The notes: generated from the sequence alone by a model not told the origin. Shown: positions 116 to 48,338, counted from the stretch's first letter. The stretch is DNA of 49,379 nt from a virus (IMGVR_UViG_3300028832_000101:1-49379); one strand, 5' to 3'. Translations and numbers: made by a program.

Positions 116-1600
116 CTATGCAACTTTGTCTAAATTTAAACTTAATTCCATAGTAATATTTCTATTTCTAATATCATTGATAATCATTCGACTACGAGTT
201 TCGCCTTCTTTGTTACTAGTAGGATCAGTTTCTTTTTGATAATATCGATTATGAGCATTTTTTATATTATATTGATGCTTTTGAAGATCTGATGAAACAT
301 AACTTTGATCATCCTTCTCATTAGAAATTTTTTCCATGATTTCTGCAACATTATATACTTTATCATTAATTACCATAAATCATGCAAAATCATCTTTATC
401 AAGTGATCCCGCTAATGCTAATGGTAAAAATGCAGCATGGAAATAATCATACATATCTTGCATTGCATTTTGCGCATCTTTATTTAATTCTGCTGGTAGT
501 TTCATTTTTCTTCCAGGTTTAATAATTGCCATATTATAGTCTGCAAAAGCATTGTAAAATTGAACTAAAGGAACACTAATTTTTGCATTATCTAAAAAAT
601 TAGATAAAGTTGCATTTGATTTAATATGAATATTTGCAACATTATTTTTAACATTCGTTCTCTTTAATGTGATACCTGGAAGTCTAACAGAAATAAGTCC
701 TTCTGCTTGTCCATTTACCATTTTTGGAATATCACATTGAATAGAGATATCTTCAGTCTTTTTATTAAATATTGATGAACTTCCAGTACCTTCAGCTGAA
801 ACTACTAATTTCATATTTTTATCTATAACATTTATTTTATCCATGATATATTTAGGTAAATATTCTGCTAGCTTATCTTCAGATACGAAACCTACCATTC
901 TATTGATTATATTCCAAGTAGAAAATAAAAAAGCCTCAATAGTTTTACTCTGAGTTTCTTTTCCAAAAGATTTCATTCCTCCGCCTTCAATAGCTTGAAT
1001 TGCGGATAAATTTGCTAACATTTTATTTATTTCTCCTTGATGACTAGCAATAGCTCTACTATAAGAATTATCTACTTTAAAAGTAGTTCCATTATTTAAA
1101 TATGCATCTCTATAAGTCTTTTTAATAGCATCAATAGAAGTGTCTCCATTTAACATTTCTTGTGTTAATATAGGTAAAGGGTTTGTACTAAAAGTACCCC
1201 CTGTAATTTGCTCTAGTACTTCAGAAAAACGATTTACAATTTCTTGTAATTTTTGTACATCATATTCGGCGGAAGCTATATCTCCTCTTGAGACTCCCGC
1301 AGTTTCTATCGAATTAGCCATTTCTTGTGCAGCTTTACTAATCCCATCATTTTGAATATCACTTAATAATTTAAAAAATTCATCTTCACCTATTGTCTTT
1401 CCATTTATTTTTATTTTTTGTCGATAAATAGTATTTAATTTAGCTTTTAAATCTTTAAGAGATATTTCATATTGTTTTTTTACTCGGTCATGACTAAAAG
1501 TTTTCGCTAAATAAGCGGCATTATCACTTGGACTATCTCCATTACTTAAATGACTATATTGATAGTGAACATAATCTCCTAATGCACTCATTCTTATCAC
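116..1600 (-). CDS. Hypothetical tail-region protein, 494 aa with one TGA read as Trp
   Basis: ORFs 380..1600 and 116..376 are in frame across TGA at 380-382 (LDKDDFA-W-FMVIND); ends TAG. Confidence 0.8.
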
Positions 1601-1620
1601 CTATTTTCTTTTTCAAAAAT

Positions 1621-1648
1621 AAAAAAGGAGGCCAATTAAGGCCTCCTC
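1621..1648 (-). terminator. Intrinsic terminator after tail tube gene
   Basis: Minus strand GGAGGCC-TTAATT-GGCCTCC followed by a T run. Confidence 0.8.
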
Positions 1649-1686
1649 CATCCATTCAATCCCAAAGTTTTATATATTTATATTAA

Positions 1687-2574
1687 TTAGATTGATGATT
1701 CATCGTCACCAAGATGTTTCATTACTGATTCGATTTCTTTAGTAGCAGCTTCTGAGTCATCTATAACTTGCATTACACATAAAACTTTTTTAGTTTTATT
1801 GAAGTAAGTATATCCAGGGAATGCGTCCATAGTAAATGTAAATGTACTTGGATCTCCTGTAGCAGCCATAGAGAATGAGAAGTTAGATTGAATCTTAACA
1901 TTTGGTAATGTAATTTCTGCAGGTAAATCTTTTCCTGTAGCTTGGTCTCTGAATAATGTTGAAGCTTCAACATAGTAAGATCCAGCGAAGTTTTCTGCAT
2001 CAATTTGTAATTCTGCAGCATGGTTAGCTTTCTTAATGATATAGAAATCAACTAATACAGTTGCACCATTGTATTCACTTTCAATTCCTGTTAATGATTT
2101 TCCGTCAGCAGATACACTGAAGCCTTCAATTAATTCACCTTTAACAGATCCATCTTCTTCAGTTAATGCAGCAAAGATTGCAGCAGTAGAATCGATAGTT
2201 TCAGTTTCTCCTAATGAAGCACTTAAATCAATAGCTCCATTAATAACGATTGCAGATGAAGTTACATGAACGTGAACATCTTGTTCTGCATTGTTAAATA
2301 ATCCAGCACCTGATAATACTGAGAATCCAATTGGAGATAATAAAGCGTCTTCAACTGTGAAAGTTAAAGTCTTTTCACCTTCCCATGCGATTAAACGAGT
2401 ATTTCCTCTACCACCTGTAGCGTATACTGTTGTAGCAGCACCTTCAAGAGTAGATGTTTTAGCTGTATCAATATATAATACTGGTTGTCCAGCTTTGAAT
2501 GTAGAAGTTCCGATTTTTACATCAGATTTAGCTTTGAAAACTACATTACATATTTCTCTTACACCAAATTTCAT
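1687..2574 (-). CDS. Putative major tail tube protein, 295 aa
   Basis: Position after neck genes, own terminator, beta-rich sequence with GGRGN and GDPSTF motifs seen in siphophage-type tubes; no TGA. Confidence 0.6.
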   Translation of the reverse strand: MKFGVREICNVVFKAKSDVKIGTSTFKAGQPVLYIDTAKTSTLEGAATTVYATGGRGNTRLIAWEGEKTLTFTVEDALLSPIGFSVLSGAGLFNNAEQDVHVHVTSSAIVINGAIDLSASLGETETIDSTAAIFAALTEEDGSVKGELIEGFSVSADGKSLTGIESEYNGATVLVDFYIIKKANHAAELQIDAENFAGSYYVEASTLFRDQATGKDLPAEITLPNVKIQSNFSFSMAATGDPSTFTFTMDAFPGYTYFNKTKKVLCVMQVIDDSEAATKEIESVMKHLGDDESSI

Positions 2575-2662
2575 AGTATTTTCCTCCTTTATAGATATTA
2601 TTTTTTCCTTGTATCACTTAATAAGTTCTGCTTATTTGCTAAGAACTTATTTTAGAGTTTTA

Positions 2663-4035: not shown

Positions 4036-5010
4036 CTATAAAGATGCTATCGTAATAGTTTTTACAATAATATCTTCATCATTAATTTTATATTTTAAAT
4101 CAAATTGTCCGCTTTTAGCAGATGTAATGATTATATTTATTTTTGATTCACTTTGTGATTCTATTTTCGCCTTTGATGTTTCTAAAATCCAGCTTCCGCC
4201 AGAAGCATTTTCAATTTCATATGAAACTTTATCAAAAGGATAAACAGTATCATATCCAACGATCGCGGCTGTTGTGTCATCAATAACTGGATTAACATCA
4301 GGTGTTTCCGCATCATCGGTAGTGTTTGTTACAGGGTCAAATTCATTTGTAAATGTTTCCTTTAGATAAACAATTAACATTGTATCTGAAGTTATATCAT
4401 TAACCATTTGAACTTCCCATACTCTATCTCGAATTTCAACTTTTTGAAATCTATGGAAGAATTTTTCTGTTGTTTCATCTTTAGTAACATATAAAACAAC
4501 TTCATATCCCATCTCACTCCAAGAATTAGTTTTCTTAGTATGCCATAGTTCGCCTTTTGTTCACTTACCAAGATAACCATAATAAGTATTGCCATCAATA
4601 ACAATTTCATCTTCAGCTTTTCTTATAGTTGCTCTGAAATAAGCATTTTCTTCCAAAATTTCTTGAATAACAATCCATCTAGTAGAAGTTTCTTTTCAAG
4701 TAAAGGTATCTCCTACCTTCATCCCGATTATTTCTTCTCCTTCATGGGTTTTATCATATATTTTTTTTCTATTTAAACATATATCTTTATATGGAATAGA
4801 TATAATTTTATCATCATAATCTTCTTTTAATTTATCATGATTAATTAAACATCTAAATTCTCTACCATCAGTTAGAATTGCAGTTTGCGCTTGATAAGAA
4901 TATAATAATGCTTTTTTAAGACTTCTTAATTTATCACTATTCATTCTTTCTTCTTGATTAGGGCCACCTGCATAATTTACTCGAGTTTTAAGATTATCTA
5001 GACTCGACAT
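4036..5010 (-). CDS. Putative head-tail joining protein, 324 aa with two TGA read as Trp
   Basis: 4696..5010 and 4036..4512 join in frame through TGA at 4696-4698 and 4561-4563 (GDTFT-W-KETSTRW; YLGK-W-TKGELW). Confidence 0.75.
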
Positions 5011-11759: not shown

Positions 11760-13517
11760 CTATTTCTTTGAAAAAAACATCATATCTGAAATATTTCTCT
11801 TTTTTCTTTTCTTTTTTCTATCTTCTTCTTGCTTAATATAATATAGTCCATATTCAAAAGCAGAAAACTTATCTTTAGGAATACTTCTACTAGATTGCTT
11901 CAATATAATATTTACACCTTCATTTTCTTCTACTAAATTAAGCATTTGTTCTCTTAAAATTGTAGTTAAAGTAAAAGGCATTAAAAATTCAGCACGTTTA
12001 TCCGCATCCATATTTTGTCCTACTTTTGTACTCATTAATTTTACTTTTGCTTGACCTTCGTCAATTAAGAATTTTATTTTACCACTAAATAATTGAGTTT
12101 GAACATAACTATGAGCTTCAGTATTTATTGGCGCATTTGCCTTAATTAAATACATAGCATTTTCTTCTACTCCAGGACCTTTTATTTTTTTATAAGGTTC
12201 TAAAATATCTTCAGCAGTTCCGCCTTCAACTCCAAATGGTGGTAGTTCTTCTCCTGTTTCTGGATCCATTTGACCTTTAGTCATAAAATCTACAAATCCA
12301 GCACCAAGACCATTCGCATCGATTGCAATTATCTTCGCTTTATATTTATAAAATAATTTTTTAACATTGATTGCTTGTTTTTCAAAATCTTCTGCTTCAT
12401 ATGAATATAAATTTACAAGAGTCTTCAAAGCAGCGCCTTGAACTTGCGGAGTTACTTTAAACACACAAACTTCGGTAGTACATTTAAAACGTCCAACATC
12501 GACTCCAAGTACATAATAAGCACTTTTGCTACTTCTCCCACTAAATTCATATTCTGGTTGTAATAATACTCTATGTTTATCAAATTTCTCTGCAGAGAAG
12601 AATGCATTTTCTGCATCTCCAGACCACTCTGATTCATATTCACGAGCAAAAGAACTATCATTATAAGTTCCATCTAATTTTAATTCTTCAATAAAAGATT
12701 TTTTCAACAAACCTTCAATTACTGGGACGCGCCAGGTTCCGCCTAGAACGACCGCTTCCGCAGGTTCAATTATTTGTTGGATAAGTATTTGTATTAATTT
12801 ATCATATGCAAAACTATTTTTTCATCCCGCAGTAGTTACATATATTTGAGATTTATTAACAGTTTCTTCTTCAATTCTTGTTCCATCCGCCAATCTTCGG
12901 TCAACGTTCATGGTTGGAATAATAACTTCATTTAATAATGTTTGGTCTATTAAGATACACTCTTCCATCAAACCTCCAGTAGCACGTTTACCACGGGAAC
13001 TTTGTTGAGCAGCCATAATATCTAATTTACTACCATTTTTAAATTTATATTCAACCATATTCTTACTTGCTTTTGTTTGACCTCTTGTCCAGTCAATTTC
13101 ATTTTTTAAACCTGGAATTAATTTACAAAGCTCTTCCGCTTTTTCTCTTGCTATTCCAGCAGCTTGTTCTTTTCCTCCAGTTGTAACGAATAAATGTGCG
13201 CCTGGGAAAAGTACACATCTTAACATTAAAATTAACACAGATAAGAAAGATTTTGAATAGGCACGAGGAAAGGTTGCATATGCATATCTATGACGCATTA
13301 CCGCCCTTAAGAATACTCTTTGATAAAAGAATAAACTAAAATTTTCAGGATTATTTTCTCCGCAAAGGAATTCCACAAACATATCAGGATATTCACGCCA
13401 AAAGGAAACATACTGTCTAATTATAGGTAAATTATCTTTTATTCTTTCTTCAGATATCCCTACTTTTTTTAGCATACTTTTATCTTTAGATAATTCCATT
13501 AAATCAGAAAGAGCCAT
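11760..13517 (-). CDS. terL: Terminase large subunit, 585 aa with one TGA read as Trp
   Basis: ATPase half (FPRAYSKS, GLMEE, YVTTAG) and nuclease half (GVDVGR, IAIDANGLG, KDKFSA) join through TGA at 12822-12824 (VTTAG-W-KNSFAY). Confidence 0.9.
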
Positions 13518-13518
13518 T

Positions 13519-14772
13519 TTATATCTCTCCTTCCTCATCAAGGCCGAATTCATTATTTTCTATTAAAATATTGTTATCTTGTTCTTTTTGTGCTTCAACT
13601 TCTTCCATGAATGCAGCATAATCTTCATCTTCAAGTTCTAATGCCCCATCTTGTGCTGCGGCCTCTGCCTCATTCATTTCTTTTTGAATTTGAATTTTCT
13701 TTAAAGCATCTTCTATTTGTTGTCCAAAACCTAAGTCTTGAGTAACTAATTTATGTAAATAATCATTCATATCTTTTAAAGTTAAATCAACTTTATCTTG
13801 TGGAATATCAGTTGCATATCTAGGAATAAATCCTTCTCTTTCACACATAGCAACTAATTCTCCAACGCTATCTACGAAATCATTTTTATCTTCTTTATTT
13901 TGAGCTGCTGTAAATTTAGCTGATTTTCTTAAACTTTCAGATACTCTTGATAATTTTTGATAACTATCAATATCTTCCATATCTAGAGCATGGTTCATTT
14001 TTAAATTTGTTTTACAAATTAGAATTAATGTATTAATTGTATCCGCATCTTGAATATCAAATGACTCTGTCATTTCATTATACATTCTTTCTAATTCAAC
14101 CCATTCTGAAGGTTTATAAAAACGACCTCATTTCATAACTAGATAAATTTTATCATCATCAGTTAAATCTGCACCTAAATCTACCATATCATCTTCGCTC
14201 ATATATTGAGAATCGTCTAATCCGATAGATCCTCCAACCATTGGAACTTGTCCTATTGGTTGACCTGGATTTACAAAATCTTGAGCAGGCATTTCCGCAT
14301 GTTTTGTTTCAGTTTGTGTTAAAGTTTTATATTCAGCTTCACTAATTTCTCCATTTTCAAATCTTTCTTTAGCTTCAGCTTCTCTTTCCGCAACTTCTTT
14401 TGCATGTTCTTCTGCTCTTGCCGCATATTCTTGTTGTAATCTTTCAGTGTCTTCCCAACCAAATTCGCGCCATTGTTTTAGTTTCATTTTAGATAAATAT
14501 CTACCAAAAACAGATTGACAAGTTAATTTGCTAGGGTCTTTTTCATAAATTCTATCTCTTAATGTATTTCATTCTTCAGGAATATAAGGAACATTCATCT
14601 TTTCTAATAACCATAGAAATGATTTCTCATCAAAATTATCAATGTGCATTGTCAAACATTTTTTACACATTTCAGTTTTCGTTCCATCTTTATAAGTGAA
14701 AAACTGATTTTCATCCATAGTCTTTCCGCATTTAGTACAATAATATCTTGGTTTCTCATTCATAATATTCAT
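13519..14772 (-). CDS. Packaging-region protein with N-terminal Zn ribbon, 417 aa with two TGA read as Trp (small terminase candidate)
   Basis: Three ORF fragments join in frame via TGA at 14569 and 14128 (YIPEE-W-NTL; LVMK-W-GRFYKPSEW); CxxC...CxxC at N-terminus; abuts terL. Confidence 0.75.
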
Positions 14773-31062: not shown

Positions 31063-31068
31063 TCCCTT

Positions 31069-36469: not shown

Positions 36470-36740
36470 AGAAGTAATGGCTCTTAATTGGAACATAAGT
36501 TTGAGTATTGACTTAGTTTGAGCAACCCATCTCAAATACCATAACTTTTATTTACTTATTACAAATATATTATATAATAATTTTTTCAAATTATCAACTA
36601 ATATATTTTTATCAATGTCTTTCTGCGACTTTTAAATAATAAGCTATCCGAAACTTACGAAAGGCATTGATAAAAATATATTAATTATTTATTACATAAC
36701 TATTATAACAAAAATTTTTAGTTTTTGCAAATTTTTTCAA

Positions 36741-36818
36741 TGGTTGCGGCGGGTGGGATTTGAACCCACGACCCCTAGGTTATGAGCCTAGTGAGCTACC
36801 AGACTGCTCTACCCCGCT
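36741..36818 (-). tRNA. trnM: tRNA-Met(CAT), initiator-like
   Basis: Cloverleaf, unpaired 1:72, fMet-like D arm, encoded CCA; one extra nt in acceptor. Confidence 0.85.
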
Positions 36819-37371
36819 ATAAATAAGCGTGAGCCTATTTAAGCACCCCAGCTCACAAGGTTCGGTTTCATGTTGCTTTTTTTAAGGGGTTAGAACATCA
36901 CCGCCGCAGTATCCCCAAAAGTTTTAAGTGAGAGTACAGTTTTTATTAGAAATTCCTTTTTTGCACAGGGAGAATTATTTGGTAAACTGTAACCGTTCAT
37001 CCTAACAACCCAAATATTACCTTTAAGTTTTTTGTTGAGAAACTAACCGCAGTAATGTCGTATCAAAACTCTAGTTTCTACTTGAAACTTGGTACTTCAC
37101 TGCTACTAGGTAGCTGATACCTTTAAAGAATTATATAAAACAAGTGGACTTATTGCCTGAGGTTTTTGATAACGGAGAACTCATTGTTTAAGCATTACCC
37201 TGTTCACTCAGTGGGTTTCGCAAACTCCAAAATTAAGATTTTTTCTTTTTTATTACATTTATATTATATTATAAATTTTTTATAAAATCAATTAATCACT
37301 TTTTACCAAAGTTTTTTAATTTCTTTTTTTATTACATTTATATTATATTATAATTTTTTAAAAATATCAAT

Positions 37372-37926
37372 TTATGATTTATAAGTTGCAATTAATTCAT
37401 TTATTTGATCTGAATCTAATACTTTTTCAACTTCTATAAAAACCCCTTTTAATAAATCTTGTTTTAAATTAGGGTTCTTTTCTTTTAATCTATCTAAAAT
37501 ACGATATCCCCTTTTCCCAGGTAGATAATATATTTTTCCATCTAATTCTAATTCAAGAGCATAAACATAAATAGATATATGATTAGAAATAATAGATTTA
37601 ATCTCAGCCTCATCATCAAATGTATCCTTTTTTACAATAGTAAGCATTTTACTTACTTTTGCATCATCTGTATAATATGCTATTTCATAACCTTGATTTC
37701 TGTAATCCATAACAGTTTCTGTTACTGCAATATTATATAGATTAGAATTGGCGGAAATGCCCATATCTATATATTGTTTATTTTGTTTTAGATAATACAT
37801 ATATCTTACTCTGTATCCTTTTGCTCATAGAAAAATTGTGGATATAATTATACATATAAAAAATATTTTTAAAATAAATTTCCATTTTATATATATTTTT
37901 TTCTTATTTAATAATTCATTCGTCAT
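37372..37926 (-). CDS. Membrane-anchored protein, 184 aa with one TGA read as Trp
   Basis: ATG 37926 with GGAGG RBS, hydrophobic N-terminus, TGA at 37825-37827 in frame with ORF 37372..37800. Confidence 0.75.
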
Positions 37927-38061
37927 TCTTTCCCTCCTAGCTTAAACAAGGTTTGAGAAGGTTATAAAACCTTCTCTGTTTAATATATTTTCTTTGGAAG
38001 AAATGAAAATATGAAATTGTTATTATTTATAAAGCATTACAATTTCGCTTTTAAAAATAAG

Positions 38062-38146
38062 TGCCCTTGACCAGAATTGCACTGGATATAAGCGGGTTCA
38101 CTAATAAAAGTGCCATACGCTTGTCTTACTTTTAAACGACAAGGAC
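38062..38146 (-). ncRNA. tRNA-like element with extended anticodon arm, no CCA
   Basis: 7-bp acceptor GTCCTTG/CAAGGGC, D and T arms present, bulged long middle arm. Confidence 0.55.
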
Positions 38147-38420
38147 ATAAATAATGAGAATTTTTTTCTATGAAGAAGGATAATTCTCAAACCAAGTCTC
38201 AATTGAAAAAATAATTTAATAATTTTGGTTATAATAAAAATATTATATAACATATATACCTCGAGTTTATTACAACCGTTCGTAAGTCTTACTAGCGGAC
38301 GTGGCCCCGCTCCCAACCACTATATTAGGATAGCCTCCTTTTAAAAAGGTAATCAAGTGCTGATAGCACCAACCAAAACCCCTAGTTTATAGTCATTGCG
38401 GACTTAATAGAGTTTATTTG

Positions 38421-38491
38421 TGTGAGCCTCAAGAATTGAACTTGACTTCTTCCTTTTTAGGAAGCGTGCTACCATTAACACTAAGTCCCAC
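38421..38491 (-). ncRNA. tRNA-like element with 6-nt anticodon loop, no CCA
   Basis: D arm GTGT/GCAC, CTTCC-TAAAAA-GGAAG, T arm TCAAG-TTCAATT-CTTGA. Confidence 0.6.
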
Positions 38492-38653
38492 ATATATATC
38501 AAGATACCGCAAGCCACTTAAAATCCATAAATTAAAAACTACAATATTGCTTTTGGTATCTTATAATTATTATAATAAAAATTTTAGTTTATTTCAACTT
38601 TCTTTTTTATTTTACAATTATATTATATAATTATTTTTATAAAAAATCAAAAA

Positions 38654-38740
38654 TGGTACCAGCGGTGAGACTTGAACTCACACACCCTTGCGGATACGGC
38701 ATTTTAAGTGCCGTGCGTCTACCGATTCCGCCACGCTGGC
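38654..38740 (-). tRNA. trnL: tRNA-Leu(TAA)
   Basis: CGGCA-CT TAA AA-TGCCG, long variable arm, CCA. Confidence 0.93.
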
Positions 38741-38749
38741 ATATATAAA

Positions 38750-38825
38750 TGGTGGCTTGACCAAGAGTCGAACTTGGATCATCGGATTTTCAGTCCGCTG
38801 CATAGACCAGCTTTGCTATCAAGCC
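38750..38825 (-). tRNA. trnF: tRNA-Phe(GAA)
   Basis: Loop CT GAA AA, CCA. Confidence 0.93.
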
Positions 38826-38828
38826 AAA

Positions 38829-39202
38829 TGGTGGACCCGAGGAGATTCGAACTCCTGTCCTAGTACTGCGTCATATATACTTACTTTCTTACAAGCTTAG
38901 TTGCATTTTAAAAACTCTATTTCTATTTATGCAACACTATTTGAAATAGGTCTTTACACATTAAATAAGATAATATGCCTGTAAAGAAACATATTAAATT
39001 TGTCCCTCTAGATAAGTCTACTATATTTTCACGAGGGTATTACTCATATAATAGTCGCCTACGCAAAAGATAATGCGTTTACAGTAAATAAAGATTTAAC
39101 TTTATTAGCGATTTTTGTTAAAATGTTGTCATTTAATATTTAAGTTTGTTTTGCTTGTTTCAATATATTGGCTACATCTAGTCGAAACCATAAAACGAGC
39201 CC
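38829..39202 (-). ncRNA. ssrA: tmRNA, tag (A)DNILTKIANKVKSLFTVNALSFA
   Basis: 5' GGGCTCGT..GGTTTCGAC, 3' T arm and GGGTCCACCA with G3.U pair; tag ORF 39130-39059 ends TAG. Confidence 0.92.
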
Positions 39203-39212
39203 ATAAATAAAA

Positions 39213-39289
39213 TGGCGGTCTGTACGGGATTCGAACCCGTGATCTCCTGAGTGACAGTCAGACGTGATAGACCCCTACACTAACAGACC
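39213..39289 (-). tRNA. trnD: tRNA-Asp(GTC)
   Basis: Loop CT GTC AC, CCA. Confidence 0.93.
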
Positions 39290-39349
39290 ATAACCCCTCT
39301 TATATAGAGGGTCGGCGGGAATACTCCGGCCTACGTAAATACAATAAAT

Positions 39350-39426
39350 TGGTAGCTCCAATAGGATTTGAACCTATGACCTATGGGGTATGAATCCATT
39401 GCTCTAGCCAACTGAGCTATGGAGCT
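39350..39426 (-). tRNA. tRNA-CAT (elongator Met or Ile2)
   Basis: Loop TT CAT AC, CCA; identity not resolvable by eye. Confidence 0.85.
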
Positions 39427-39433
39427 ATAAACA

Positions 39434-39510
39434 TGGTGCGGGATTGAGGATTTGAACCTCAGACCCTTCGCGTATCAGACGAATGCTCTAACCAACTGAG
39501 CTAATCCCGC
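39434..39510 (-). tRNA. trnI: tRNA-Ile(GAT)
   Basis: Loop CT GAT AC, CCA. Confidence 0.93.
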
Positions 39511-39522
39511 ATATATAAAAAA

Positions 39523-39598
39523 TGGTGTCCGGAGAGAGGCTTGAACTCTCGACCCTCTGATTAAAAGTCAGATGCTCTACCAACTGAGCTACCCGGGC
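39523..39598 (-). tRNA. trnK: tRNA-Lys(TTT)
   Basis: Loop CT TTT AA, CCA. Confidence 0.93.
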
Positions 39599-39605
39599 AT
39601 ATATA

Positions 39606-39695
39606 TCATTAGCTAGGATTCTCACCTAGACCTTTGACCTCCACGGCCAATGTACTAGACAGCATAGCATATATTGCAATTCATCTATACCAATA
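39606..39695 (-). ncRNA. Degenerate tRNA-like element with enlarged D region
   Basis: TTGGC-CGTGGAG-GTCAA arm and CTAGG-TGAGAAT-CCTAG arm; weak acceptor, no CCA. Confidence 0.35.
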
Positions 39696-39777
39696 TAAAA
39701 GTCAGTGGTCATTTAGTTGCATGCTACCTAAACTCCGGACTACCATATATTTATACTACTAATGTAAAAATTCAAAC

Positions 39778-39853
39778 TGGCGCGGGATGTAGGGCTCGAA
39801 CCTACGACCTAACGGTTAACAGCCGTGCGCTCTACCGACTGAGCTAATCCCGC
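39778..39853 (-). tRNA. trnN: tRNA-Asn(GTT)
   Basis: Loop CT GTT AA, CCA. Confidence 0.93.
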
Positions 39854-39856
39854 AAA

Positions 39857-39934
39857 TGGTGACGGGTACGGGATTCGAACCCGTGAGTCCATGCGTGAAA
39901 GGCATGTGTGTTAAGCCGTCTTCACCAACCCGCC
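39857..39934 (-). tRNA. trnE: tRNA-Glu(TTC)
   Basis: Loop CT TTC AC, CCA. Confidence 0.93.
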
Positions 39935-40052
39935 ATAACAGTAAGTAGGAATATATCCTACTTACCAAGATAGTTTCGTAAAACTACCCGCAATTCCTTG
40001 CTTTTCTTTTTTATTACAATTATATTATATTATATTTTTATTGAAAAATCAA

Positions 40053-40649
40053 TTAAATATATTTTAAAGGATTAACCTTTTTTCCTTTTATCATTATTTC
40101 AAAATGTAAATGTGGTCCAGTTGCATTACCAGTAGATCCAACTAAGCCGATTAATTGCCCAGCTGAAACTTTCTGTCCCTTTTTTATCTTATATGCACTA
40201 AGATGCCCATATCTAGAGATGCTTCCATCTGAATGTTTTATTTCAATCAAATTTCCCATATTTCCAGAATACCTAGCAGTTATTACAGTGCCAGATTTTC
40301 AAGCCAGTACTTTAGTTCCTTTTTTTGCTACTAAATCTACCCCTTTATGATAAGCAGTAAATTTAGAGCTTATATATTTATAGTGGGCAATAGGCAAATA
40401 TGTTGTTACTATTGGTTTGTTTTCTGCGGCGGCCGCCTTTATTTCAGGTTGAATTTCAACGACCTCTGTAACTGGAATTTCCTCTGTTTGAGGAATATCT
40501 TCTATTATAGAAGATTTCATTTTAAATGGAAATAATGCTAAAAATAATATTAAAATTGTAATAAATAATAAAAAAATGACCTTCTTATTAATTTTTTCCA
40601 CCCTTAATCCCTTACGGGAGGGGAGGCTACTTTTTTCAATTCTTGTCAT
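40053..40649 (-). CDS. Membrane-anchored M23 peptidoglycan endopeptidase, 198 aa with one TGA read as Trp
   Basis: HKGVD (HxxxD) and YGH/PHLHF halves join through TGA at 40299-40301. Confidence 0.9.
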
Positions 40650-40680
40650 ATCGTGTCCTTTCTTGTACTGTCAAGAAACA

Positions 40681-40761
40681 TGGAGACCGGGGTCAGATTT
40701 GAACTGACGACTTATACATGATTTGCAGTCATGCGTGTTGAACCAACTTCACCACCCAGTC
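40681..40761 (-). tRNA. trnC: tRNA-Cys(GCA)
   Basis: Loop CT GCA AA, U73, CCA. Confidence 0.9.
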
Positions 40762-40771
40762 AACAATTAAA

Positions 40772-40857
40772 TGGTGCGGGATGAAGGACTTGAACCTACA
40801 ATGAATAAATTCGCGAGTTCCTAAGACTCGTGCCTATACCAATTCGGCTAATCCCGC
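40772..40857 (-). tRNA. trnL: tRNA-Leu(TAG)
   Basis: Loop CT TAG GA, long variable arm, CCA. Confidence 0.92.
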
Positions 40858-40861
40858 AAAA

Positions 40862-40936
40862 TGGGGTGAAATAAGGGTTATGCTCCCCTGCATCCAGAGC
40901 CACAATCTGGCGTACTACTATTATACTAATTTCACC
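40862..40936 (-). tRNA. trnH: tRNA-His(GTG) with atypical T loop AGCATAA
   Basis: G-1:C73, loop TT GTG GC, CCA. Confidence 0.85.
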
Positions 40937-40941
40937 ATAAA

Positions 40942-41029
40942 TGGTGGGTGTTGAGAGAATCGCACTCACTCGAACCATAAGATACCGGTTTTACAGACCA
41001 GCCCGCCTGCTTTAACGGATTAAACACCC
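40942..41029 (-). tRNA. trnY: tRNA-Tyr(GTA)
   Basis: Loop CT GTA AA, long variable arm, T loop TGCGATT, CCA. Confidence 0.88.
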
Positions 41030-41032
41030 ATA

Positions 41033-41121
41033 TGGCGCCTAGTAGAGGACTCGAACCTCTAAGCCGAACAAACGACCAACGGTTTTCAAGACCGCCCGAC
41101 TACCAGTTATCACAACTAGGC
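41033..41121 (-). tRNA. trnS: tRNA-Ser(TGA), reads UCN
   Basis: Loop CT TGA AA, long variable arm, G73, CCA. Confidence 0.92.
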
Positions 41122-41124
41122 ATA

Positions 41125-41364
41125 TTATTTTATTCTAACCCTATCCTCTTGTTCTTCTTTTCTTAATTCATGTTCACGATAACCAAATTCATGTAATAAA
41201 TCTCTAAATGGTTTTGATACTCCTGGGACATAAATTCTACATACTAATTCATAAGCACAAATATTTACAATATCTTGCTTTCCTTCTCTATCTGCTTGTG
41301 AAAGCCAATTAATTAATAGAGTTGTTGGAACAGTTTTAAATTCTTCTAATCGTTTATCTTCCAT
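41125..41364 (-). CDS. Hypothetical protein, 79 aa
   Basis: GGGGAAGTG RBS, between tRNAs. Confidence 0.7.
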   Translation of the reverse strand: MEDKRLEEFKTVPTTLLINWLSQADREGKQDIVNICAYELVCRIYVPGVSKPFRDLLHEFGYREHELRKEEQEDRVRIK

Positions 41365-41390
41365 TATTTTTCACTTCCCCTTTTTAAAAA

Positions 41391-41467
41391 TGGTCGGAGA
41401 AACAGGATTTGAACCTGCAACCTCTTGGTCCCAAACCAAGTGCACTACCAAATTGTGCTACTCTCCG
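41391..41467 (-). tRNA. trnP: tRNA-Pro(TGG)
   Basis: Loop TT TGG GA, CCA. Confidence 0.93.
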
Positions 41468-41472
41468 ATATA

Positions 41473-41548
41473 TGGTATCCCCACTAGGACTCGAACCTAG
41501 AATAGACGCCTTAGAAGGGCGTTGCATTATCCTTTGTGCTATGGGGAC
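41473..41548 (-). tRNA. trnR: tRNA-Arg(TCT)
   Basis: Loop CT TCT AA, CCA. Confidence 0.92.
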
Positions 41549-41578
41549 ATAAAAAGACACTATAAATGAAATAGTGTC

Positions 41579-41824
41579 TTACCCCTTAATACCAAAATCT
41601 TTTATATCCTTTATTTGCTCGTCCATTATTTTCTTTTTTATTTTATATTTATTTATTCTATTACCTAGACACCATGGACATTGATTAGCCGCACCTCCGC
41701 GTCTACCTCCATGATTTCTACAAGTTCTATCAACAGACTTACAATAAGGTTGTCCTTTAGTACCATATTCTATTCTATGTTCTTTTCCCGATTTTATCGC
41801 TTTTACAAGAGACATAGTCTCCAC
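41579..41824 (-). CDS. Basic Cys/His-containing protein (CRNHGG..CPWC), 81 aa
   Basis: GGAGGTGG RBS; possible Zn site. Confidence 0.75.
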   Translation of the reverse strand: METMSLVKAIKSGKEHRIEYGTKGQPYCKSVDRTCRNHGGRRGGAANQCPWCLGNRINKYKIKKKIMDEQIKDIKDFGIKG

Positions 41825-41831
41825 CTCCTTA

Positions 41832-42086
41832 TTATGAGGCGGCTTCTACTATTTCATTTAATTTTGCTAAATTTTTTCTATATCTTCTTCCTGAGCCTTT
41901 TGGATGTGCGGCAGCGAATGCTTTTGCAGCTTCCATAATTTCTTGGCTTTTAGAAGTTAAATATTTAGAAGCTTGAGGATTTCTTCTTAACTTTTTATTA
42001 GTTTTTCCTTTTCTATCTAAATTAAATTGAGTTCTTTGATAATGTCCTTCACCTGTATGTGATGCACCTTTTCTTTTCTTTGCCAT
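41832..42086 (-). CDS. Very basic protein, 84 aa
   Basis: Own TTGACA promoter; RKGKTNKKL motif. Confidence 0.75.
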   Translation of the reverse strand: MAKKRKGASHTGEGHYQRTQFNLDRKGKTNKKLRRNPQASKYLTSKSQEIMEAAKAFAAAHPKGSGRRYRKNLAKLNEIVEAAS

Positions 42087-42161
42087 AATCCTTAACCTTC
42101 TTTCTTTTATTTTTCTATATATATTATATTATATTTTTTCTTTACTGTCAACAAAAATAAT

Positions 42162-42257
42162 TGGCAGGGGCTAAAGGATTCGAACCCTTACCTGGAGTTT
42201 TGGAGACCCCACTCTATGGTTTTGAAGACCACTGTGCTGCCTTTACACTAAGCCCCT
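42162..42257 (-). tRNA. trnW: tRNA-Trp body with two tandem anticodon arms: UCA (UGA-reading) and CCA
   Basis: AGGGGCT TA GTGT-AAAGGCA-GCAC A GTGGT-CTTCAAA-ACCAT AGAGT GGGGT-CTCCAAA-ACTCC AGGT AAGGG-TTCGAAT-CCTTT AGCCCCT G CCA. Confidence 0.85.
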
Positions 42258-42266
42258 ATATTAGTC

Positions 42267-42638
42267 CTACTTACTAGATAAGTAGAAACCTTCTTTATCA
42301 AAACCAACTGAATTACCTTCAGTTTCTAACCATTCTTCTAATGTTATATAATCATAAATATTAGGATAATCTACAATAGAAAGCGGTAATTCAAAATCTT
42401 TAATTAAAGTATTATAATTTCTCTTTATAAAATTAAGTAAAGTATCTTTTTGGTCTTCGTCTTTATCTATCATAATATCACTTTTTTTAGTTAATTCACT
42501 AAGAATATCAAAAGCGAATTCTTTCCAAAAACCATTTAATTCAAATAAAGAGATAATACTTAAATCATATTTATTAATATATAAAGTTTTCTTTTTTAAC
42601 CATTCTAATTCATAGTCATCTAATCTTTTAATTAACAT
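42267..42638 (-). CDS. Hypothetical protein, 123 aa
   Basis: GAAGGA RBS; lies between the two Trp tRNA genes. Confidence 0.7.
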   Translation of the reverse strand: MLIKRLDDYELEWLKKKTLYINKYDLSIISLFELNGFWKEFAFDILSELTKKSDIMIDKDEDQKDTLLNFIKRNYNTLIKDFELPLSIVDYPNIYDYITLEEWLETEGNSVGFDKEGFYLSSK

Positions 42639-42657
42639 ATTATTCCTTCTTTCAAAA

Positions 42658-42731
42658 TGGCAGGGCGACAAGGATTTGAACCCTGATACACAGTTTTGGA
42701 GACTGTAGTCCTACCATTGGACGATCGCCCT
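42658..42731 (-). tRNA. trnW: tRNA-Trp(CCA), canonical
   Basis: A1-U72, loop CT CCA AA, G73, CCA. Confidence 0.93.
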
Positions 42732-42734
42732 ATA

Positions 42735-42825
42735 TGGCGCTCACTAGAGGATTCGAACCTCTGTGTCGATCGCTCGGCCTAACTGTTTAGTAGACAGTCC
42801 TCTTCACCAACTTGAGTAAGTGAGC
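42735..42825 (-). tRNA. trnS: tRNA-Ser(ACT), rare A34 anticodon
   Basis: ACTGT-CT ACT AA-ACAGT, long variable arm, G73, CCA. Confidence 0.88.
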
Positions 42826-42829
42826 AAAA

Positions 42830-42906
42830 TGGTGGGAGTACTAGGACTCGAACCTAGGACCCCCTGCTTGTAAGGCAGGTGCTCTAACCAACTGAGCTAT
42901 ACTCCC
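42830..42906 (-). tRNA. trnV: tRNA-Val(TAC)
   Basis: Loop CT TAC AA, CCA. Confidence 0.93.
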
Positions 42907-42911
42907 ACATA

Positions 42912-42986
42912 TGGTTGGCCCACTAGGGTTCGAACCTAGAAATGTCAGAGTCAAAGTCTGATGTGTTACCATTTCACCATGGACCA
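42912..42986 (-). tRNA. trnQ: tRNA-Gln(TTG)
   Basis: U1-A72, loop CT TTG AC, CCA. Confidence 0.92.
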
Positions 42987-43037
42987 ATAAGTAAAGGCTG
43001 CGGCCATCGGTGTTATTATCTTTGACCGCGGCCGCTG

Positions 43038-43241
43038 CTAAATTCTTGTGATGTTCAACTTTGTAATCCCATTAGCTTTTATCTCTCTTTTTGTGAGAGC
43101 TGCTGCAAGTTTAACCATATTGGTAAGTTTATTCCACTTTTTATACCAATATTTAGCAAGTAGTTTTTTCCCTTTCATATCGTATTCACGATATTTACAG
43201 AAAGCCATTTGCTCTTGCATTAAAAGTTCTTGTTCTTTCAT
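43038..43241 (-). CDS. Hypothetical protein, 67 aa
   Basis: ORF between tRNAs. Confidence 0.65.
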   Translation of the reverse strand: MKEQELLMQEQMAFCKYREYDMKGKKLLAKYWYKKWNKLTNMVKLAAALTKREIKANGITKLNITRI

Positions 43242-43280
43242 TGTTTTCTCACTTTCTATAAAATATAATAATTTTCAAAA

Positions 43281-43356
43281 TGGTGGAGGATAGGAGATTC
43301 GAACTCCTGACCCCTACATTGCAAGTGTAGTGCTCTACCAACTGAGCTAATCCCCC
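43281..43356 (-). tRNA. trnA: tRNA-Ala(TGC)
   Basis: G3.U70, loop CT TGC AA, CCA. Confidence 0.93.
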
Positions 43357-43364
43357 ATATATTA

Positions 43365-43748
43365 TTAGGCGGGCATTGCCGCCTTTTTAACTATTTCTAG
43401 TTTAAATATTATATTATTATATTTAAAAGTAATAAACTTTCCACTATTTGTAGTATATTCAATATTATTTTCTTTTAATTTATCACATATTTTTTCAACA
43501 ACAAAATCTTTATCAGTATCTCTTAATGCTTTTTTCCCATCATTAGTAAGTAAAGATGTGCCTTTTTTAAAATCAACTGAATAAATTTTATCATTAACAA
43601 ATATTAAATTGAATATACCTTCTCCTGATAAAGAATATTTTCTCATATAATTATCCCCAAATATTCCTTTAAGAAAATCTAATCCAAATGGATATTCATA
43701 ATCACTAAAATATTCATAATTATCAAAAAATTTTCTCATACTTATCAC
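43365..43748 (-). CDS. Hypothetical protein; C-terminus resembles paralogs C/C'
   Basis: SGKFITFKY...FKLEIVKK versus KIITFTY...FKIDL. Confidence 0.7.
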   Translation of the reverse strand: MISMRKFFDNYEYFSDYEYPFGLDFLKGIFGDNYMRKYSLSGEGIFNLIFVNDKIYSVDFKKGTSLLTNDGKKALRDTDKDFVVEKICDKLKENNIEYTTNSGKFITFKYNNIIFKLEIVKKAAMPA

Positions 43749-43802
43749 TTCTTTCTTATAAATATTATATAATAATTTTATAAAAAAGTAAAATAAGATA
43801 TA

Positions 43803-44032
43803 AAAATGGCAATTTATTGAGCAATTTTATGCCTTAGGTCAAGTAGATTTTCTCCGTGAATTACAGTCCGTTACCAGATCCGCGCTTTCGCTTTAAAACT
43901 CCGACATGGGGTTACCCCTCATATGACTTGATTACCACTTAGTACATACTGTAATCTCAATAAATATCGCTCTAGAAGTTTTCCTTCACAATAATTTGTG
44001 TATATAACTAGAATAGCGTGCCATTATAAATA
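43803..44032 (-). ncRNA. Candidate pseudoknotted ncRNA, about 230 nt
   Basis: Perfect helices 43956-65/43812-21, 43948-55/43860-67 and 43926-31/43839-44; the last two cross. Confidence 0.55.
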
Positions 44033-44037
44033 AAAAC

Positions 44038-44111
44038 TGGAGCGGGTAGTCGGATTTGAACCGGCGTTATCTGCTTGGAAGGCAGAAGTCCTACCACTGA
44101 ACGATACCCGC
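44038..44111 (-). tRNA. trnG: tRNA-Gly(TCC)
   Basis: Loop CT TCC AA, U73, CCA. Confidence 0.93.
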
Positions 44112-44117
44112 ATTAAA

Positions 44118-44193
<76 letters not shown>

Positions 44194-44567
44194 ATAGAAG
44201 ATAGATTAGACGCATCTAATCTATCAGGTGGGATCCGAAGACACTCCACCGCAATTCATTAATATTGACAGCAGTTTATTTAAAATAAACTTACACGAGC
44301 TCTTCTATTTTTTGTTTTACCTTAAAGGTCGCCGAAGATAGGCTGGGGCTGTCATCTCCCATCTAAATGATGTCGTGTACATCGCTACTCAATGAGTATG
44401 TAGAGCCACGTTCTCTACTCGTGCCTTTTTATAGATACTAAATCTACTCCGGGACAGCCTTATAAGTCTGCTAAGCAGTGAACCCTCTGCCGTGTTAAAT
44501 TGGAGAACTTTCCTTAATTTATATTGCGACTTTCAGCCTTCTCCATCCCTGGCCCCGCCCTTATTTA

Positions 44568-44858
44568 TTATTCAACATTTTCTTCTTCTTCGTCATCTAT
44601 TTCAATTTCTTCAATTTTTTCAACTTCATTAAGTTCCCTTACTTTTGATATTTTAAATTTTACTCCTGTAAAATCTTCTGCATCTAGAATAACATCACAT
44701 TTATTCCAAGCATCTTCTACTTTTGATATTGCATCATCTTCATCTTCAGCATATACTTCAACTTTTCTTTTTAAAGTTTCTATAATATTTATAGTATATA
44801 ACTTTTGATTTGGAACTTCTTCTACAAATAATTGAGTAATTTTATTCATATTTATCAT
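44568..44858 (-). CDS. DpnD/PcfM-like small acidic protein
   Basis: Y.I.I.ETLKR.VEV.AE.EDDAI..V pattern. Confidence 0.6.
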   Translation of the reverse strand: MINMNKITQLFVEEVPNQKLYTINIIETLKRKVEVYAEDEDDAISKVEDAWNKCDVILDAEDFTGVKFKISKVRELNEVEKIEEIEIDDEEEENVE

Positions 44859-45065
44859 CTCCTCTTTTGTTTTCTTATAAATATTATATAATTATTTTTA
44901 AAAATAATCAAATAATATTCAAAGTCAGCTGACAATAGAATATAATTTTCTATTGTCAGCCAATGGAAAGAAGGTTTAGTGAAACAATATTTATTGTTCC
45001 ACTATATATATTTCAAAAATTCTTCAATAGACTTATCTAAAATTGACTAATTTGTTAGTTTTCTA

Positions 45066-45140
45066 TGGTGTTCTCTCTAGGACTCGAACCCAGAATTTAT
45101 GGTCCGTGGCCATATGTTTTATCCATTAGACTAAGAGAAC
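45066..45140 (-). tRNA. trnR: tRNA-Arg(ACG) with C33
   Basis: TATGG-CC ACG GA-CCATA, CCA. Confidence 0.85.
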
Positions 45141-45982: not shown

Positions 45983-45985
45983 ATT

Positions 45986-46567
45986 TTAATACCAACCATA
46001 TTTTTTAAAATGACTTCATGCTTTACATGGAGAGCCATAGCCTTTTCTCCATCTTATATAATTAACACCCCATCTAATTTGAGCTTGCCAATCATAACTA
46101 CCTTGTTGCGCTTTAATTTTACTACAAGGAAGAGCTTGAGGAATTCCACATGCCCCAGATGATCTGTTTCTAGATCTAGGGTTCCATCCACTTTCTCTTT
46201 GCCATAAATTAATTAAACAACTCATTTGAGTATCATCATATCCGCCTATAGATTTAGCATAATTATAATATTCTTCTCTGCTAGCAGTAGCAACATTTAA
46301 TGGTGAATAATATTTTTTCTTTTTCTTAGTAGTTTTTTTCTTTTTTGTAGATTTTTTAACAGTTTTCTTCTTAGTAGATTTTTTCTTTTTTGTAGATTTC
46401 TTAGATGTTTTTTTCTTATTACTCTTGAGTAATATCTCTTGATTAACAACTGTTTCATATTCAACATTAGTAGAATATGATTTATTTGTATAAAGAACTC
46501 CTCCTATTATCATTAATGTAAACATTAATATAAATAATATCACTGTAATTTTTATTTGTGTTTTCAT
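45986..46567 (-). CDS. Secreted lytic-transglycosylase-like (SLT/Rpf-like) protein, 193 aa with one TGA read as Trp
   Basis: Signal anchor, Lys-rich linker, RESGWNP, GIPQALP; readthrough gives GSPCKA-W-SHFKKYGWY. Confidence 0.88.
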
Positions 46568-46568
46568 C

Positions 46569-47177
46569 TTATTTTTTACCTACCCTTAATATTTCTATTG
46601 ATACATTTTTTTGTATCCCTAATTTGCTTGACTTTTTTTCACTTTCAACAAGTAAATCTATAGTTCTACATCCGACTCCTCTGTCTAGAACAATAGCAGT
46701 CAAATCCCCGCCAAGTTTGTAGTTTTTAATTTTTATAATTGAATATAATTTATATTTACTACACATGGCAACTATTCTTAGTTTTCCATATTTCGAGTCG
46801 TTATAATATATAGTATTCTTTACATTATAACCACTTGCAGTATTACCTCCACATCCGCGGCAATCTGGACCATAATGAGTTAACTTATATGTTCCTGATG
46901 ATTGTGCACTTTTACTATTATTAGTAGTTCTTTTTTTAGTAGTGGTAACTTTTTTCTTTTTTGCAGTGGCTTTTTTTACAGAAGTTACAACTGTAGTAGT
47001 CGTCGTAGTTGTAGAAGTTGTTGTTGTTGGTATAGTAGTTTCAATAGTTGAAATAGTTGTTGTTTCTTCTGTTTTTATAGGTTTATTATTTTGAGATAAT
47101 TTATATATTCCAAATAATGCCCCTATAAATATAAGAACACTTATCCCAATAATTAAAAACTTTTTTATAAAAAACAT
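46569..47177 (-). CDS. Secreted 3D-domain (double-psi barrel) protein, 202 aa
   Basis: Signal anchor, Thr/Lys linker, LTHY..TASG, VLDRG, TIDL. Confidence 0.75.
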   Translation of the reverse strand: MFFIKKFLIIGISVLIFIGALFGIYKLSQNNKPIKTEETTTISTIETTIPTTTTSTTTTTTTVVTSVKKATAKKKKVTTTKKRTTNNSKSAQSSGTYKLTHYGPDCRGCGGNTASGYNVKNTIYYNDSKYGKLRIVAMCSKYKLYSIIKIKNYKLGGDLTAIVLDRGVGCRTIDLLVESEKKSSKLGIQKNVSIEILRVGKK

Positions 47178-47193
47178 CTCCTTAATTTATATT

Positions 47194-47517
47194 TTATAAG
47201 CCTAATGCGGCAAGTAAATCTTTTACATTTGATTTTTCTTCTTCAGTAGGCTCAATTACTTTTTCTTCTTTTTGATTAAAATTAATTGCATTATTGTTTT
47301 CTTTTAAAACAACATTACTAGATCCAGGAATAGCATTATCATCTCCTGGTTCAACATTATCTTTTGCAGCAGTTAAAGTGACTTTAATTTGAACTAATTC
47401 CCCATCTTCCATAATAGGAACTCTTAATTCTTTTCCATCATTATATAAGAAAGCTCCATCAAAAATTGATTGGATTTTCTTCATAACTTCTGCTTTTGCA
47501 ATTTGTCCTCTAGCCAT
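47194..47517 (-). CDS. Hypothetical protein, 107 aa
   Basis: Coupled to upstream gene (TAATG overlap). Confidence 0.75.
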   Translation of the reverse strand: MARGQIAKAEVMKKIQSIFDGAFLYNDGKELRVPIMEDGELVQIKVTLTAAKDNVEPGDDNAIPGSSNVVLKENNNAINFNQKEEKVIEPTEEEKSNVKDLLAALGL

Positions 47518-48338
47518 TATTCTTCCTCCTTTTCCATTGTTACCATTAAACCAGCTTGTTCTAAGTTCTTAGATAAATCTTTTACATGATTACACATTTG
47601 ACAATTTCCGCCTTTCATGCATTCTCGATTGCATCTGATTCTTTTCTTTACGAATCTAGGCACTATATATCTACTATCAAGAGTTTCATGCAAACCTATG
47701 ATTATCTCTTTTAAATCTCCAAACCATTTTTTTTCTTTTTTATATACTTCATATAATACATTAATTTTTTTATTTTCTCCATAGAATTCACATACATCTA
47801 CATAAGGTTCATAAAAATCAATATCTTCAGGTCTAATTCAAAATTTCTTTAAATCATCTAATCCTTCCCAACTTGCTTGTGCAACATTTGGGAATACTCT
47901 AATTTGAATATTATGTTCATGCGCGATTGCCGCAATCTTATCTAGTTCAAATCCTAAACCTTCAACTATATATAAATCTGAAACCCCATAATCAATATAA
48001 CCTAGAACTCGATCTCAATCATTAATTTTTGTATCAAAGAAAAATTTACTATCTGGATATTCATTTAACATTATATCTAATTCTTCATTTCTCATTGGAA
48101 ATCTTATATATAATATTAAATCTGAATGTTCTTTTTGAAAATCTAATATATCTTTTACCTTATTTTCTTGTAAACTTTTTTCTAAATTTTCCATACAAAC
48201 ATTAATTCTTTGATTTTTATGTTCATTACAAAAGGTCAATAAAGCATCTAAATTTTCTACTCTATTATAAAAAATATTTATTTCGTCAGCTTTATCTAAT
48301 AATATACCTTCTTTGTTTCAATCAATACAGTATTTCAT
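47517..48338 (-). CDS. U32-peptidase-like protein with C-terminal Cys cluster, 273 aa with three TGA read as Trp
   Basis: GAAGGAG RBS; TGA at 48318, 48015 and 47838; F-W-IRPED motif; CNREC...CQMC. Confidence 0.7.

Follow-up and report, generated by a model that had tools for sequence, protein, structure and literature searches.

In-frame TGA codons, very probably read as tryptophan, in the late genes of a cattle-gut phage with a two-armed suppressor tRNA

How does a phage keep its structural genes whole when a stop codon stands inside them, and what reads that codon? The question is raised by IMGVR_UViG_3300028832_000101:1-49379, the 49,379-nucleotide stretch of viral DNA analyzed here at its full length (hereafter, the window), for which a preliminary description made from the sequence alone had proposed that TGA is reassigned to tryptophan (Trp) throughout. 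The window comprises bases 1–49379 of one 136,493-base virus record (CheckV completeness 91%), and we take it to be the left third of a ~136-kilobase (kb) tailed phage of cattle-gut Bacillota, with kin in Enterococcus phage H1, Geobacillus virus E3 and the SPbeta-type phages. As a whole, the data are very probably best explained by a phage with a split code, in which TGA would mean Trp in late genes by way of the phage's own tRNA(UCA), charged by the tryptophanyl-tRNA synthetase (TrpRS) of the host. On this account the early genes could be translated by a host with the standard code, in-frame TGAs that must be read as Trp stand in head and tail genes and in several genes for cell-wall enzymes, and the reader would be the phage tRNA(UCA) encoded at 42162–42257.

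The preliminary description had placed 14 in-frame TGAs in the window and had them rejoin fragments into ten genes. TGA is present in the coding strand at all 14 positions (plus strand for 16144, minus for the other 13), and translation with table 4 fuses the pieces called with table 11 into the same ten open reading frames (ORFs):

116..1600, minus strand: conserved protein of 494 amino acids (aa), function unassigned; TGA 380 is residue 407.
4036..5010, minus strand: 324-aa head-module protein, phrog_31155; TGA 4696 is residue 105 and TGA 4561 is residue 150.
11760..13553, minus strand: large terminase; TGA 12822 is residue 244, between the ATPase and nuclease halves.
13519..14772, minus strand: 417-aa protein, phrog_3314; TGA 14569 is residue 68 and TGA 14128 is residue 215.
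14781..15848, minus strand: 355-aa sigma-factor-like protein, phrog_5767 (8.6e-53); TGA 14988 is residue 287.
15976..16260, plus strand: small protein of 94 aa, with an AGGAGG ribosome-binding site before its ATG; TGA 16144 is residue 57.
37372..37926, minus strand: 184-aa membrane-anchored protein; TGA 37825 is residue 34, where the transmembrane helix ends.
40053..40649, minus strand: M23 metallopeptidase within the tRNA array (Peptidase_M23 at residues 100-194, 1.4e-35); TGA 40299 is residue 117.
45986..46567, minus strand: 193-aa transglycosylase-like protein; TGA 46016 is residue 184.
47517..48338, minus strand: 273-aa protein, function unassigned; TGAs 48318, 48015 and 47838 are residues 7, 108 and 167.

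Alignment with homologs places all 14 sites inside conserved proteins that are continuous through each site and, because the homologs run through every one of them, indicates that read-through is needed at all 14. IMG/VR holds at least 80 related contigs (terminases 58–93% identical); sites near the terminase were compared over 81 related loci, column counts were pooled over ~85 related phage contigs, and five near-complete relatives were compared whole, both for the sites far from the terminase and for genome-wide counts. For the genes at 116–1600 and 37372–37926, homologs were collected by protein searches. A peptide-pattern search of related loci with the proteins of 47517–48338 and 116–1600 gave no match, probably because its patterns back-translate Trp to TGG only.

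Two fusions that the preliminary description had singled out hold up under this comparison. In the terminase, the ATPase and nuclease parts are joined across the TGA, with PHROG families matching on either side of residue 244 (phrog_15503 at residues 28–248 and phrog_24618 at residues 365–593, both of "unknown function"); phrog_15503 ends near the TGA column, and the split looks like a database artefact of calling the genes of recoded phages with table 11. In the M23 peptidase, TGA 40299 lies between the HxxxD and HxH halves of the active site, within the Pfam match. The protein at 116–1600 has 16 full-length homologs (445–499 aa) that continue through site 380, and three database proteins end exactly there, one of which is the window's own table-11 fragment. 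For the membrane-anchored protein, whose ATG at 37926 follows a strong ribosome-binding site (AGGAGG), 22 of 23 homologs (148–197 aa) include the N-terminal transmembrane segment with the site. The small protein has a single homolog (locus L004), which aligns over residues 1–90, past site 16144, with conservation downstream and N at the TGA column. As to how genes end, the window has 43 ORFs of 100 aa or more (main strand per block), and every one stops at TAA (31) or TAG (12), in a set of ORFs delimited by TAA and TAG only.

That TGA stands for Trp, which had been read from sequence context, is borne out by the codons that relatives use at the same columns. Over the relatives, the window's TGA columns hold TGG 175 times and TGA 45 times, with all other codons together at 33 or fewer and none above five. 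In the terminase, residue 244 is TGG in 68 of the 81 relatives, TGA in eight, TAT or TAC in four and TTT in one. The two sites of the phrog_3314 protein are likewise divided between TGG and TGA (19 and 9 at residue 68; 20 and 11 at residue 215), as is residue 287 of the sigma-factor-like protein (59 and 3); in the phrog_31155 protein residue 105 is TGG in five relatives and TGA in two, and residue 150 is TGG in four, TGA in one and another codon in two. Farther from the terminase, site 46016 lies within the conserved motif YGSP..A-W-....GWY and is TGG in one relative (G005) and TGA in another (G004), site 40299 is TGA also in one relative, and in the 273-aa protein the counts are TGG 3 and TGA 2 at 48015, TGG 2, TGA 2 and TTT 1 at 47838, and TTT 3, TAT 1 and CCA 1 at 48318. 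In Enterococcus phage H1, which uses the standard code, four well-aligned sites are W, including residue 105 of the phrog_31155 protein and both phrog_3314 sites, and five are F or Y, including F in its terminase (~44% identical) at the column of residue 244 and Y at that of residue 287 of the sigma-factor-like protein. Set against the window's columns in the other direction, the relatives' own in-frame TGAs fall on 130 of 1,367 Trp columns (9.5%) but on none of 10,056 Gly, 2 of 10,829 Ser and 3 of 2,051 Cys columns. Genome-wide, the five near-complete relatives have TGA 96, TGG 68, TAT 11 and TTT 10 at the TGA columns, with one GGA among ~230 aligned codons. These codon comparisons support a synonymous exchange of TGA and TGG, with TGA read as Trp.

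The reassignment thus stood, but the claim that it runs across the window did not: use of TGA is patchy, with ~15 TGAs against ~88 TGGs. Under table 4 the genome holds ~150 in-frame TGAs in all, for example 12 in a 2,748-aa ORF (127184–135430) and 14 in a 592-aa ORF (108191–109969), and they are module-specific, as the following shares of TGA in TGA plus TGG (ORFs of at least 100 aa) make plain:

Replication block: 1/73, the sole TGA at codon 5 of its ORF.
Window block at 15.9-24.7 kb (six genes of at least 100 aa): 0/10.
Window block at 24.7-38.4 kb: 2/29.
Window head and packaging module: 8/44.
Tail blocks: 66/131 and 26/53.
Late island at 115.6-123.2 kb: 0/26.

We infer that such use of TGA may time late-gene expression. 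A comparison of coding density under tables 11, 4, 15 and a "TAA sense" code, a crude measure on which we do not rely, bears out table 4 genome-wide, where it stands out (154 ORFs, mean 260 aa, coverage 0.88; table 11 gives 197 ORFs, 182 aa and 0.78), but it does not discriminate inside the window, which is AT-rich and gains more coverage when TAA is opened.

Recoding of this kind is not in itself new, since the phage fits a published description, and the preliminary description was right that stop-recoded gut phages are on record. Borges et al. (bioRxiv 10.1101/2021.08.26.457843; Nat Microbiol 2022) reported TGA-to-Trp recoding in gut phages of standard-code Firmicutes, among them the Agate phages (~127 kb, from the guts of cattle and other animals, with Firmicutes as predicted hosts), in which TGA occurs in several structural modules and the replication genes keep the standard code (bioRxiv 10.1101/2021.08.26.457843). 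Like the present phage, the Agate phages encode a TGA suppressor tRNA, and close relatives differ in their number of TGAs; the likeness is purely descriptive, in that both come from cattle and are alike in genome size, code and pattern of modules. The two accounts differ in that Borges et al. reported some lysis-related genes as TGA-enriched, whereas one late island here has no TGA, and in that no suppressor tRNA structure was given there, whereas a dual-arm structure is described here. Another likeness is with the phAss-1 group of human-gut phages (PMC10607447; genome of similar size, 135,976 base pairs (bp), terminase 43% identical), which also reassigns a stop codon, though TAG rather than TGA. 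Terminase identity to Enterococcus phage H1, Geobacillus virus E3 and an Alicyclobacillus phage is 44–45%, and DNA of the present phage occurs in cattle-gut metagenome runs of eight studies, one of them possibly the source of the DNA itself; small shares of the phage turned up in 5–6 RNA runs as well, which we do not use as evidence of expression.

What would read these codons is encoded in the window, beside an ordinary tRNA for Trp:

42162..42257, minus strand: suppressor tRNA(UCA), 96 nucleotides (nt), with a Trp acceptor stem, a UCA arm, an extra hairpin, a T arm and an encoded CCA end.
42658..42731, minus strand: canonical phage tRNA-Trp(CCA), ~400 nt from the suppressor.

The preliminary description had given the UCA tRNA a "Trp body," which holds for the acceptor stem but is incomplete, as the gene is 96 nt long, is labeled SeC by ARAGORN and carries a second hairpin with a CCA loop. 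The acceptor (AGGGGCU / AGCCCCU, then G and CCA) has A1-U72, G2-C71, G3-C70, G4-C69, G5-C68 and G73. In B. subtilis tRNA-Trp, A1-U72, G2-C71 to G5-C68 and G73 are determinants of identity (PMC9976931). The UCA arm (GUGGU-CUUCAAA-ACCAU) is followed by a linker (AGAGU), a second hairpin (GGGGU-CUCCAAA-ACUCC), a normal variable loop and the T arm. The extra hairpin thus occupies the variable-arm position, with 22 nt, 5–6 bp and a loop, CUCCAAA, that resembles a Trp anticodon loop. When the five-base linker and either one of the hairpins are taken out, the remaining 74 nt form a canonical tRNA, and the minimum-energy fold is a five-arm cloverleaf (pair probabilities 0.79–0.94 in both arms). Measured against bacterial tRNA-Trp, the gene departs in having UCA in its anticodon arm, CCA only in the extra arm, and 96 nt rather than ~74–76 nt.

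This design recurs. A strict dual-arm pattern matched 17 independent viral contigs, and a scan of IMG/VR in which just the UCA and T loops were constrained found 80 distinct tRNA(UCA) sequences, 25 of ordinary length and 55 with a long arm. Of the latter, 41 have G73 and 14 lack the CCA loop and form a separate group that looks selenocysteine (Sec)-like by eye (G1, ends in ...CCGCC). The extra-hairpin loop reads U-C-C-A-[A/U] in all 41 of the G73 tRNAs and retains the U33 and A37 of a genuine anticodon loop. RNAalifold run on the 41 recovers the extra stem, with changes on both sides at four pairs in 25, 11, 3 and 10 sequences; many members have a closing pair that is not Watson-Crick, and linkers range from ~3 to 8 nt. 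Comparison across the family shows the second arm to be a conserved design with a covarying stem. Searches of bacterial genomes with a GUCCAAA variant of the pattern matched almost only genuine tRNA-Sec, near the estimated chance rate; the only two Trp-like matches were short contigs binned into Coriobacteriia metagenome-assembled genomes (MAGs). We found no published account of a tRNA with a second anticodon-like arm in the open-access library that was searched.

How could such a tRNA be charged? Neither PF00579 (TrpRS/TyrRS) nor PF00472 (release factor) has a match in the 91%-complete phage genome, so that tRNA(UCA) is the only phage-borne part of the recoding that was found; it follows that the host's TrpRS would have to charge the tRNA, and that the charged tRNA would have to outcompete the host's release factor 2 (RF2). 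The Jade phages reach the same end result, UGA read as Trp by a phage tRNA in a standard-code Firmicutes cell, by other means. TrpRS and release factor 1 (RF1) were reported only in two Jade phages, in a "code change module" with the suppressor tRNA (bioRxiv 10.1101/2021.08.26.457843). Nothing matching either was found here, and in the phages sampled every TrpRS gene accompanies a plain tRNA(UCA) and none a dual-arm one. Specifically, a PF00579 gene is present in none of 30 dual-arm viral records (eight of them rated 100% complete) and in four of the 19 records whose tRNA(UCA) is plain, where it is TrpRS-sized (one-sided Fisher test, p = 0.018). We tentatively propose, at somewhat less than even confidence, that the dual-arm tRNAs form an undescribed class in which a tethered mimic offers the host TrpRS its CCA identity element in cis, with no need of a phage synthetase. 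The extra arm would thereby supply the C34-C35-A36 element that is missing from the UCA anticodon. The four plain-tRNA records with TrpRS-sized genes (L108, L158, L116 and L129; G035, G038, G048 and G050) have a class-I synthetase gene of 329–365 aa, which in the two that are small contigs is separated from the tRNA by no more than a few kb; A73 replaces G73 in two of the four tRNAs, a hint at a matched TrpRS/tRNA pair of non-bacterial type.

Several observations weigh against a split code served by such a tRNA. TGAs are sparse in the window (14–15 codons), and opening TAA as a sense codon lifts window coverage more (0.859 vs. 0.765). At several TGA columns distant homologs have a residue other than Trp (solved M23 homologs A or S; Y 13, V 1 and T 2 at site 380; F 8, L 7 and I 5 at 37825), and these sites therefore speak for read-through, not for the identity of the amino acid. 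The MAG contigs with the closest terminases, from Erysipelotrichaceae and Clostridia, would be pointers to the host but may be mis-binned phage contigs. The anticorrelation between TrpRS and the dual-arm form is suggestive only, because its four positives form about two related groups, and many of the records are fragments. Authentic tRNA-Sec, in some Alphaproteobacteria and more exactly in Caulobacteraceae, Skermanella and some others, has GUCCAAAA in its variable-arm loop at a rate estimated to be about that of chance over the many selC-bearing genomes, which is also a caveat for motif-only searches. Finally, the variable-arm position may be geometrically wrong for the anticodon-binding domain of TrpRS.

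A different role for the second arm is one that we judge somewhat unlikely: instead of a synthetase decoy, the arm may give an alternative fold that reads UGG, or may serve another partner, in that it may engage a modification enzyme, signal processing or act as a decoy for an anticodon nuclease. Deletion of the first arm indeed leaves a perfect 74-nt tRNA-Trp(CCA), and the retention of U33 and A37 in the loop fits a working anticodon arm. UGG, though, is already covered by the tRNA-Trp(CCA) ~400 nt away, and a separate tRNA-Trp(CCA) is present in the same locus in 14 of 50 dual-arm loci, so that a CCA arm is not needed for reading UGG. A U34 anticodon, moreover, is usually able to read UGG by wobble, which also counts against an arm with that task. 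The non-Watson-Crick closing pairs and variable linkers of the family suit a tethered hairpin better than a core anticodon arm.

Less probable still, and in our view unlikely, is leaky read-through, in which the tRNA competes with host RF2, truncated and full-length products are both made, and TGA acts mainly as a throttle. The failure to find a release factor or TrpRS in the phage is as this would have it, as is the share of TGA in the window's essential head genes, only 18% of Trp codons. A further TGA at 33825..33827 (minus strand), which the preliminary description did not list, is placed as one would expect of a stop: the TAG of ORF 33798–34478 follows it by nine codons, in a gene and block otherwise free of TGA. 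It could be either a true stop, which the suppressor would read through, or a sense codon, giving a C-terminal Trp; a homolog (G003) aligns only to residue 197 and leaves the C-terminus uncovered. Against a throttle, genes with 12–14 TGAs need efficient decoding to yield full-length protein, and the free interchange of TGA and TGG in relatives looks neutral.

That the host itself uses table 4, as a Mycoplasmatota-like cell would, and that the phage simply follows its host's code with no switch, we consider highly improbable. UGA read as Trp by a tRNA-Trp(UCA) is the Mycoplasma arrangement, and in Mycoplasma and Spiroplasma (code 4) a UCA tRNA with Trp identity lies beside a tRNA-Trp(CCA) gene as it does here; the low guanine-plus-cytosine content of the phage genome (26–32% outside the tRNA array) and the nearest MAG bins, Erysipelotrichaceae, kin of Mollicutes, also fit. 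Recoding in those bacteria, however, extends to the entire genome and to the host machinery, and RF2 has been lost, whereas the TGAs here are confined to modules and the tRNA has an extra arm. Nor would such a host explain why TGA makes up one in 73 of the Trp codons of replication genes and half of those in tail genes, why the majority Trp codon is still TGG, or why the phage brings its own tRNA(UCA) and a full tRNA set, and the cultured relatives infect standard-code Enterococcus, Bacillus and Geobacillus. A standard-code host would accord better with these data.

There is next to no chance that TGA means Gly (table 25), Ser or Sec: the suppressor shares with bacterial tRNA-Sec and class II tRNAs the features that account for its SeC label (UCA anticodon in tRNA-Sec, G73, a long extra arm, ~95 nt; the arm and G73 are serine and Sec features alike), but the exchange of TGA with TGG at the same columns and its near-absence from Gly, Ser and Cys columns exclude these meanings, and the tRNA differs from tRNA-Sec in its 7-bp acceptor and 4-bp D stem (8 and 6 in bacterial tRNA-Sec), Trp determinants and Trp-anticodon-like extra loop, the Sec-like long-arm phage tRNAs being a distinct group.

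Other in-frame TGAs in the window were set aside. Among table-4 ORFs with TGA, 22534–23022 (minus), antisense to a plus-strand gene, was judged spurious or unresolved, 36204–36470 (plus) is an artefact inside the ROOL RNA, and 43806–43994 (plus) is antisense to the OLE-like RNA. TGAs 40671 and 40749 fall inside tRNA-Cys, 11676 lies upstream of a conserved start, and 26704, 30569, 41371 and 45455, though in table-4 ORFs, are not counted among the supported sites. The small ORF 26641–26916 (plus) overlaps the minus-strand ORF 26535–26777; its TGA 26704 is kept as TGA in one relative (G002), and the coding strand is ambiguous. Separately, in the sigma-factor-like protein the final ~40 residues have further matches, to zinc-finger segments of the Lar-like, HNH and endonuclease VII families.

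The suppressor lies in a larger array of RNA genes:

36746..45140, minus strand: tRNA array with 24 tRNAs (ARAGORN), at least one more (Rfam) and a transfer-messenger RNA (tmRNA); it houses the decoder.

Between them the tRNAs appear to serve all 20 amino acids. A tRNA at 40865–40935, matched by Rfam and missed by ARAGORN, has anticodon GUG (His) by eye and an odd T arm, a weak further tRNA match lies at 38422–38490, and the tRNA-Ser at 42735–42825 has the unusual anticodon ACU. The tmRNA at 38829–39202 (minus; Rfam 58 bits; ARAGORN tag peptide ANKVKSLFTVNALSFA) is thus found in a phage that suppresses stops. A full-length ROOL RNA (35820–36456, minus; Rfam RF03087, 151.7 bits, model positions 1–574) lies just upstream of the array. 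Between tRNA genes there is a strong though only partial match to OLE RNA (43811–44016, minus; RF01071, 118.6 bits, E 1e-30, model positions 284–595 in 206 nt), an unusual element for a phage tRNA array, in a region kept in relatives G004 and G005. HDV-like and theta ribozymes have been described next to the tRNAs of recoding phages (PMC10879173); at E <= 0.01, Rfam gave no match to either at 35.5–45.6 kb.

For these phages, the recoding is known biology and mainly a matter of annotation: table 11 splits the terminase, the M23 peptidase, eight other window genes and most tail genes elsewhere in the genome, and public family libraries already hold the terminase halves separately. What is new is the decoder, a suppressor tRNA whose conserved family, at least 41 distinct sequences from phages, is marked by a second arm that resembles a Trp anticodon arm. 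In the earlier survey a suppressor tRNA was detectable in only 35% of code-4 phages, and how it is charged was left open (bioRxiv 10.1101/2021.08.26.457843). If the extra arm does recruit the host TrpRS, as we propose, it would be a natural relocation of a synthetase identity element off the anticodon, of the kind that code engineers attempt by hand. It would also explain how most TGA-recoded phages manage without a synthetase of their own, and so answer the charging question of Borges et al. (bioRxiv 10.1101/2021.08.26.457843).

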